Positions 30,589-31,243 of a stretch of 64,000 bases of DNA are shown piece by piece (within the stretch, counting starts at the first letter, position 1; each line of letters starts with the position of its first letter). The stretch lies in NCBI RefSeq assembly GCF_030384885.1, contig NZ_CP128613.1; one strand, written 5' to 3'. The DNA comes from Escherichia coli. Its GTDB lineage: Bacteria > Pseudomonadota > Gammaproteobacteria > Enterobacterales > Enterobacteriaceae. The position numbers were made by a program, and so were the translations under genes. The notes under the pieces were generated by a model. That model did not search any database and was not told where the DNA came from. It saw only the letters and a list, made by a program, of their open reading frames with translations.

Positions 30589-30855
30589 ATGGACATTAAT
30601 AACAAAGCCCGCATTCACTGGGCATGCCGCCGTGGTATGCGCGAACTCGATATTTCAATCATGCCGTTTTTCGAACATGAGTACGACAGCTTAAGCGATG
30701 ACGAAAAACGAATCTTTATTCGTCTGCTGGAGTGTGACGATCCGGACCTGTTTAACTGGCTGATGAATCACGGTAAACCGGCCGATGCAGAGCTGGAAAT
30801 GATGGTCCGACTCATCCAGACACGGAACCGGGAACGTGGTCCTGTGGCAATCTGA
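30589..30855 (+). CDS. sdhE: FAD assembly factor SdhE (YgfY/CptB, 88 aa)
   Basis: Contains the conserved RGMRELD motif (...[22 protein letters not shown]...). Confidence 0.93.
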
Positions 30856-31243
30856 TCTGCGCGTCTCCTGGCGCGCGCAGTGGCTTTCCTTGCTGATTCA
30901 TGGGCTGGTTGCCGCTGTTATTTTACTCATGCCCTGGCCGCTCAGTTACACCCCGTTATGGATGGTGTTACTTTCGCTGGTGGTGTTTGATTGCGTTCGC
31001 AGCCAGCGACGCATTAATGCTCGCCAGGGAGAAATTCGCCTGTTGATGGACGGGCGTTTGCGTTGGCAAGGGCAGGAGTGGAGCATCGTCAAAGCGCCGT
31101 GGATGATTAAGAGCGGCATGATGCTGCGTTTACGTTCTGACAGCGGTAAACGGCAACATTTATGGCTGGCAGCCGACAGCATGGACGAAGCCGAATGGCG
31201 GGATTTACGGCGGATTTTGTTGCAACAAGAGACGCAAAGATAA
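30836..31243 (+). CDS. cptA: Inner-membrane protein CptA (YgfX, 135 aa), reported toxin partner of SdhE
   Basis: Two TM helices; overlaps the sdhE 3' end by 20 nt in a different frame. Confidence 0.88.

Follow-up and report, generated by a model that had tools for sequence, protein, structure and literature searches.

Among the closest described relatives of the gene pair considered here is the CptB/CptA toxin-antitoxin (TA) module of Escherichia coli, reported as type IV by Masuda et al. 2012. Its components are the same proteins as SdhE (YgfY) and YgfX, under other names, encoded in a two-gene operon and with FtsZ and MreB as the reported targets. According to the accounts of that work in later papers (PMC8621075 and PMC3985639 among them), overproduction of E. 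coli CptA gives rise to lemon-shaped cells and inhibits the polymerization of FtsZ and MreB, and YgfY counteracts the effect of CptA. A CptBA-like pair has also been described in Acinetobacter: induced CptA is toxic, and the protection afforded by CptB is partial and dose-dependent, being seen only if CptB is pre-induced at a high level (PMC8132199). The sdhE-ygfX pair differs from TA systems in several respects. CbtA/CbeA is found in cryptic prophages, whereas sdhE-ygfX belongs to the core genome and is non-mobile and syntenic; in contrast to type IV systems, the supposed antitoxin is a housekeeping assembly factor that is reported to bind the supposed toxin, and whose deletion is tolerated.

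The operon, both of its proteins and the dispute over its TA status are already known in the literature. The sdhE-ygfX loci of E. coli K-12 and Serratia sp. ATCC 39006 contain the same genes in the same order, with the same neighbors and annotation, and show no substantive difference from the locus described here. SdhE has been reported in alpha-, beta- and gammaproteobacteria and in eukaryotes, far beyond the range of YgfX; the function of YgfX is not known, with an SdhE-YgfX interaction and co-transcription of the two genes being reported in Serratia (PMC5042078). YgfX has also been reported to multimerize. With regard to gene arrangement, the pair can be compared with translationally coupled pairs of the ATGA or TGATG type, which are likewise co-directional and overlap in such a way that translation of the downstream gene initiates from a region inside the upstream one. 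Those pairs overlap by 1, 4 or 8 nt, whereas sdhE and ygfX overlap by 20 nt, with no supported inhibitory RNA structure. The only increments of the present work are (i) a quantification of how well this overlap is conserved, and (ii) a predicted split PH-like fold for YgfX.

The window—the whole stretch of 64,000 nucleotides of E. coli DNA that was analysed, and to which all coordinates refer—contains the pair as follows, according to its open reading frame (ORF) list:

30589–30855, + strand: sdhE (ygfY, cptB), ATG start, 88 aa.
30836–31243, + strand: ygfX (cptA), GTG start, 135 aa.
30836–30855, + strand: out-of-frame overlap of 20 nt, in which ygfX codons 1–7 (MVLWQSD) coincide with the sdhE tail and stop (GPVAI, then the stop codon).

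The ygfX frame is +1 relative to that of sdhE, and the 20 nt are common to both ORFs. On the chromosome of E. coli 2013C-4282, which is 100% identical, PGAP/RefSeq annotates the same two coding sequences: 3290–3556 and 3537–3944, mapping to window positions 30589–30855 and 30836–31243. These data confirm that the 20-nt overlap is real. The GTG at 30836 is the earliest start codon available in the open ygfX frame, and its use is supported by the Pfam Cpta_toxin profile, position 1 of which aligns at YgfX residue 2. In an alignment of 38 relatives, with identities down to 21%, the YgfX N-terminus (M-V-x-W-Q-x-x-L-R-x-S) forms one conserved block. Distant homologs carry an ATG at or near the homologous start site, within sdhE; in one, 38% identical to YgfX, the ATG lies at the homologous site and likewise 20 nt ahead of the sdhE stop.

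A number of fused proteins of 166–217 aa, containing both Pfam domains, are present in the protein database. We attribute these to sequencing or assembly indels, because they are singletons and the position of the frame switch differs in most of them; a programmed frameshift or a natural SdhE::YgfX fusion was rejected.

The first gene product matches Pfam family Sdh5 (PF03937; 5e-26, 90.8 bits against a cut-off of 27) and, over its full length (1–88), the NCBIfam equivalog NF008130 (198.4 bits against a cut-off of 120). A phmmer search of the PDB returned 1X6I/1X6J (8e-59), 6C12 (3.8e-58) and 6B58 (2.3e-51), hits that identify the product with the structurally characterized protein; solved complexes of SdhE with SdhA and with FrdA exist. 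The RGxxE motif is found at R15-G16-M17-R18-E19, where 26 paired sequences show no variation at R15, G16 or E19; this motif is needed for flavinylation, according to a citation of McNeil and Fineran 2013 in PMC8621075. These sequence signatures identify SdhE as the FAD assembly factor that serves SdhA and FrdA, of the SdhE/Sdh5/SDHAF2 family. Deletion of E. coli ygfY/sdhE leaves cells that are viable, have little SDH activity and fail to grow only when succinate is the substrate (PMC5293155). The SdhE of the window is identical to that of other Escherichia, and its YgfX is 98–99% identical to theirs.

YgfX matches Pfam family Cpta_toxin (PF07254, formerly DUF1434) at 1e-49, with 168.5 bits against a cut-off of 27.3 and a match spanning profile positions 1–132 of 133; all 38 diverse relatives match PF07254 as well. 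Searches of NCBIfam models, of the PDB for a solved relative, and of PADLOC for anti-phage defence functions at the locus each returned no match. A confident AlphaFold2 model built with the 38 relatives (pLDDT 95.2, pTM 0.77) contains a strand (residues 2–8), two helices (12–31 and 36–62), six more strands and a C-terminal helix (118–134). Both of the N-terminal helices are hydrophobic (pLDDT 95), in keeping with two transmembrane (TM) helices, and the model thus consists of seven strands and a terminal helix, strand 1 being followed by the inserted TM hairpin. The PH-like superfamily is characterized by a bent sheet of seven strands that a C-terminal helix closes, and the model shows this arrangement. 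On the strength of the model, YgfX is predicted to be an inner-membrane protein: a membrane-anchored PH-like domain, split by a TM hairpin.

We found no earlier statement of a split PH-like fold for YgfX in the literature searched. Other PH-like proteins, some of them membrane-anchored, include bacterial PH (bPH) proteins and EROS/CYBC1, but YgfX has neither a bPH family match (none of the bPH Pfam families was matched by the 38 members at E≤5) nor a significant Foldseek match. Foldseek of the model against the PDB gave a best E of 0.05; the most biologically suggestive row, EROS in the NOX2 complex (8kei_D), is not significant (E 0.72, TM 0.37). AlphaFold2 modeling of SdhE and YgfX fused by a linker, using a naturally paired alignment of 26 rows, yielded a pTM of 0.45 with low pLDDT in the linker and the SdhE tail. 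No confident complex was obtained, and so the evidence for SdhE-YgfX binding is that of the literature.

The genomic distribution of the locus is that of a core chromosomal region. By megablast, 30300–31500 was found in 5425 of 5426 complete E. coli genomes, nearly always once and always on the chromosome, and ygfZ and fldB always flank sdhE-ygfX in these genomes. The gene order trhA / ygfZ(-) / sdhE / ygfX / fldB(-) / xerD / dsbC / recJ is kept in genomes where YgfX identity has fallen to 28–35%. By tblastn, YgfX occurs in 12 of 72,556 plasmid records and in two of 50,697 phage records. Five of the plasmid matches are records of 4–5 Mb and five more are replicons of 0.16–0.79 Mb (these ten together span 0.16–5.4 Mb), while the two phage matches are a 1.5-kb fragment and a 691-kb Salmonella contig. 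The pair is, then, essentially absent from plasmids and phages. A patchy, multi-copy or mobile distribution, which is typical of TA modules if not strictly defining, was not found for sdhE-ygfX. As a separate observation, the E. coli lineage of the window shows ~4% divergence here from the majority of strains that have been sequenced.

Conservation of the overlap was quantified at two depths. The GTG start and the 20-nt overlap are present in all 81 Enterobacteriaceae loci, these being the window's own strain plus 80 species-representative genomes (the genome scan returned Enterobacteriaceae only). When 78 distinct operon sequences are aligned, by far the least variable window of the operon is the 21-mer at 30835–30855, with an entropy of 0.016 bits/site; the next-best 21-nt window has 0.23, sdhE-only sequence 0.46 and ygfX-only sequence 0.69 bits/site. 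Entropies at the three codon positions are 0.24/0.13/1.01 in sdhE and 0.60/0.26/1.21 in ygfX, a pattern that points to purifying selection on both genes. Much of the invariance of the overlap is expected from double coding alone: the sdhE wobble base is the ygfX second position and the ygfX wobble base the sdhE first position, meaning that each overlap site occupies codon position 1 or 2 in one of the two frames. Selection on the YgfX N-terminus therefore also freezes the SdhE tail (GPVAI and its stop).

Among remote YgfX lineages (21–40% identity), nine were sampled by single look-ups:

20-nt overlap with sdhE: L082, L088, L089 and L091.
26-nt overlap with sdhE: L083 and L090.
19-nt overlap with sdhE: L085.
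14-nt overlap with sdhE: L084.
No sdhE within 2.5 kb, ygfX adjoining ygfZ: L086/L087.

Thus, ygfX lies directly downstream of sdhE in 81 of 81 Enterobacteriaceae loci and in eight of the nine distant lineages. In Shewanella, the two genes are separated by a gap of 37 bp (PMC8621075). Because the remote lineages overlap by 14–26 nt and the Shewanella genes are separated, the overlap is ancestral in Enterobacterales and strongly retained there, while not being universal in the family. The sequence comparisons also show that the overlap is not a product of chance; its conservation would fit, in addition, selection for coupled expression of interacting partners. The occurrence of ygfX without an adjacent sdhE in L086/L087 suggests that YgfX might have some function in which SdhE is not involved. 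At this level—an FAD factor gene (sdhE) and a gene for a small two-TM protein (ygfX/cptA), overlapping by 20 nt—the preliminary description is borne out, in the former respect by Pfam, NCBIfam, the PDB and the AlphaFold2 model, and in the latter by the ORF coordinates, the RefSeq annotation of an identical genome and the 81 loci.

The preliminary description went on to propose that the overlap couples translation of the two genes tightly. Two features at the ygfX start bear on this proposal:

30830–30834, + strand: weak SD-like motif GGGAA inside sdhE, 1 nt before the ygfX GTG (−4.3 kcal/mol in an anti-SD duplex scan).
30821–30846, + strand: small predicted hairpin, with the SD-like motif in the loop and part of the GTG paired.

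A spacing of 1 nt is poor for an SD sequence, and in some genera the motif becomes AAAGAA or CAGGAA. The hairpin (ΔG −10.8 kcal/mol) is unremarkable against shuffled sequences (z −1.06; 33 of 200 shuffles equally good), and the 120-nt context of the ygfX start is no more stable than its shuffles (z +0.70). RNA structure was rejected as a basis for coupling on these grounds, the near-invariant sequence giving no covariation to test. That the hairpin might hide the ygfX start until ribosomes translating sdhE open it is possible but unsupported. Some dependence of ygfX translation on that of sdhE is plausible, and a 1:1 output of SdhE and YgfX is unproven and, if anything, unlikely.

We propose, with a probability of roughly 70%, that sdhE-ygfX is a conserved chromosomal housekeeping operon of Enterobacterales, encoding a flavinylation factor and an SdhE-binding membrane accessory protein, and is not a selfish or stress-activated TA module. 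The two genes are co-transcribed. ygfX is predicted to encode an inner-membrane accessory protein, the cytoplasmic part of which would be a PH-like domain that a membrane hairpin of two helices interrupts. Given a GTG that lies 20 nt inside sdhE and a weak, badly spaced SD-like motif, ygfX translation is probably low and partly reliant on ribosomes translating sdhE, and YgfX would be sub-stoichiometric to SdhE rather than made 1:1 with it. The accessory protein would be a tether or a modulator for SdhE, acting at the membrane in the place where complex II is put together. Since the same 20 nt encode both the YgfX N-terminal strand and the SdhE tail and stop, the arrangement has become nearly frozen in evolution.

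Other readings of the locus can be weighed against this housekeeping operon. Were the true ygfX start to lie past the sdhE stop, for instance at TTG 30890 or ATG 30929, the overlap would be an artefact of annotation; mispredicted starts do sometimes cause long annotated overlaps, and ATG is a stronger codon for initiation than GTG. We regard this as exceedingly improbable. The downstream candidates are without an SD sequence (the best reach −1.5 to −2.2 kcal/mol, at spacings of 13–18 nt) and would remove the conserved N-terminal strand or part of the first TM helix, the profile match from its first position argues against a later start, and the ygfX-frame codons right after the sdhE stop vary synonymously (Leu8, for example, is CTG, TTA, CTC or CTT). 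Together with the ATG of distant homologs, these points led us to reject a downstream start. The overlap could instead serve a stoichiometric complex, with SdhE and YgfX made 1:1 through tight termination-reinitiation and no toxin involved. The two proteins are reported to interact (PMC5042078, PMC3985639), overlapping gene pairs are enriched for complex subunits (PMC10666635), and the overlap is strictly conserved, albeit to an extent largely expected from double coding. However, efficient termination-reinitiation is associated with spacings of about −8 to +10 nt, overlaps of more than 8 nt being rare (PMC10666635), and the sdhE-ygfX spacing of −20 nt falls outside this range. In the reporters of Tian and Salis, as summarized in a review (PMC12548453), coupling weakened steadily as the spacing went from −4 to −25 nt, at which none was left. 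The GTG start with its weak SD at a spacing of 1 nt, the absence of a confident complex in the fused AlphaFold2 model, and the need for SdhE to be free for binding SdhA and FrdA all weigh in the same direction, and we consider 1:1 synthesis of a complex very unlikely. The tight coupling of the preliminary description is not supported, given this spacing, the start codon and SD, and a hairpin no better than shuffles; the stoichiometric co-production that it had drawn from the coupling does not follow from a 20-nt overlap.

The remaining alternative is a genuine type IV TA module, in which membrane-bound YgfX blocks the polymerization of FtsZ and MreB, SdhE opposes this action, and the overlap sees to it that no toxin is produced without the antidote, which comes first. 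This is the reading suggested by the Pfam family name (Cpta_toxin), by a two-gene operon with the antitoxin gene first, and by the phenotypes reported in E. coli and Acinetobacter. Yet, of three laboratories that looked for the TA phenotype, two did not find it. In Serratia, the Fineran laboratory detected no TA phenotype, yet did detect a direct SdhE-YgfX interaction (PMC3985639), which contradicts the definition of type IV systems as non-interacting. In Shewanella, the pair fails every TA criterion tested: ΔygfY is obtainable, ΔygfYX grows as poorly as ΔygfY, co-expression does not rescue, cell shape is unchanged, and no two-hybrid signal is seen with FtsZ or MreB (PMC8621075). Both in E. 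coli (PMC5293155) and in Shewanella (PMC8621075), strains that have lost sdhE/ygfY and retain ygfX are viable; by this literature, the presence of the toxin gene does not prevent loss of the antitoxin gene. The locus itself is core, single-copy, syntenic and essentially off plasmids and phages, and SdhE has a well-established, unrelated role in enzyme assembly, with solved complexes with SdhA and FrdA and a range far exceeding that of YgfX (PMC5042078). We therefore judge a genuine TA module to be unlikely; the claim is published but disputed, and the genomic evidence does not favor it. Where YgfX is toxic, the most likely cause is overproduction of a membrane protein. The preliminary description was correct in relating that a toxin role for CptA and an antidote role for SdhE have been published, and its interpretation stands as far as the gene identities, the overlap and this report of the toxin claim are concerned; its TA reading gives way to the Serratia and Shewanella negatives, the viable deletions and the non-mobile, single-copy nature of the locus.

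The housekeeping operon can be extended into a more specific, and distinctly tentative, model. EROS is a eukaryotic chaperone of the NOX2 flavocytochrome. Rather than a toxin, YgfX could, in a manner recalling EROS, be a split PH-like membrane receptor or tether for SdhE, with the ancient and almost invariant overlap tying the synthesis of YgfX to the translation of sdhE in a fixed and low ratio, and the pair linking the flavinylation of SdhA and FrdA to the site of complex II. We consider this specific model possible, if doubtful. In practical terms, the conservation of the overlap (20 nt in Enterobacteriaceae, 14–26 nt in remote lineages) and the predicted fold could guide experiments on YgfX function. 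The results also call for caution in annotation: the name Cpta_toxin and TA databases place a TA label on a core housekeeping locus, and this label inflates TA counts in comparative studies. CptA is, for example, one of only four "toxins" that 80% or more of all sequence types carry (PMC10790755).

Finally, two elements flank the operon:

30338–30588, no strand assigned: divergent intergenic region between ygfZ (- strand, 29357–30337) and sdhE.
31247–31276, - strand: hairpin within the 39 nt that separate the convergent genes ygfX and fldB.

The former is presumed to contain the promoter of sdhE-ygfX as well as the ribosome-binding site of sdhE. An SD sequence, AGGAAG, is located 3–4 nt before the sdhE ATG (−4.3 kcal/mol), and the last 60 nt before sdhE are poorly conserved among Enterobacteriaceae (1.26 bits/site). 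A simple scan found no sigma-70 consensus match in 30338–30588 and no internal sigma-70 promoter for ygfX within sdhE, and an Rfam search found no known RNA family in the locus. The spacer hairpin is the more distinctive on the - strand, where its folding energy is −18.3 kcal/mol (z −3.0; 0 of 200 shuffles) and it is followed by UCUUUAU; on the + strand, the corresponding values are −16.4 and z −1.6, with no U tract. The element at 31247–31276 is thus likely to be the fldB terminator.

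Megablast comparison of window positions 30300–31500, which encompass the overlapping sdhE and ygfX genes, with complete E. coli genomes revealed an identity of only ~96% in 5410 of 5425 cases. Just 15 records reach at least 99%; E. coli 2013C-4282 is 100% identical across the region, and the nearest other locus is that of 'Escherichia sp. E1V33'. Given the ~96% identity to nearly all E. coli genomes, the window derives from a divergent Escherichia lineage, with the same degree of divergence presumably extending across the entire window.

Proteins of 166–217 aa that contain both the SdhE and the YgfX Pfam domains are present in public metagenome/Logan assemblies (P0003, P0004, P0006, P0007, P0009, P0012, P0013 and P0021). 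Biological fusion and programmed frameshifting were considered and rejected as explanations: the proteins are singletons nearly throughout (there is a single, two-member cluster) and the position of the frame switch differs among most of them, and hence they look like products of indel errors in the assemblies.

At two remote loci, by contrast with the paired arrangement, a ygfX homologue stands alone:

2501–2944, L086, NCBI GCA_038960095.1 (1.5-Mb replicon): YgfX homologue, 147 aa, 31% identical
2501–2944, L087, NCBI GCA_047692335.1: YgfX homologue, 147 aa, 31% identical

In both, the homologue directly adjoins ygfZ, is followed in gene order by nadB, rpoE and rseA, and has no sdhE within 2.5 kb. 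This 'orphan' ygfX bears on the question of whether YgfX needs SdhE. The predicted architecture of YgfX is similar to that of EROS/CYBC1, the NOX2 flavocytochrome chaperone that combines two TM segments with a PH-like domain, with the Foldseek match between the YgfX model and PDB entry 8kei_D being weak and statistically non-significant (E 0.72, TM 0.37, 133 columns).

Downstream, the convergent ygfX and fldB genes are separated by a 39-nt spacer containing a hairpin at positions 31247–31276. This is likely the fldB terminator, because read on the minus strand it has a folding energy of -18.3 kcal/mol (z -3.0), with UCUUUAU coming directly after it; for ygfX, there is no obvious intrinsic terminator. 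In one E. coli genome (NZ_CP196031.1), the match stops at query position 953, just past ygfX, where an OmpW-family gene is annotated, which suggests that DNA has been inserted or rearranged in the interval from ygfX to fldB.

Two Enterobacter hormaechei 'plasmids', NZ_CP114989.1 (51 kb) and NZ_CP126871.1 (58.7 kb), are the sole plasmid records of small size in which sdhE-ygfX occurs; they could be mis-binned chromosomal fragments or real captures.

Elsewhere in the window, three stretches match Rfam families at the gathering threshold:

14892–15042, minus strand: Sib antitoxin RNA (139.8 bits)
15691–15874, minus strand: 6S/SsrS RNA (138.1 bits)
29178–29255, minus strand: naRNA4, a REP-derived nucleoid-associated RNA, between trhA and ygfZ (69.8 bits)
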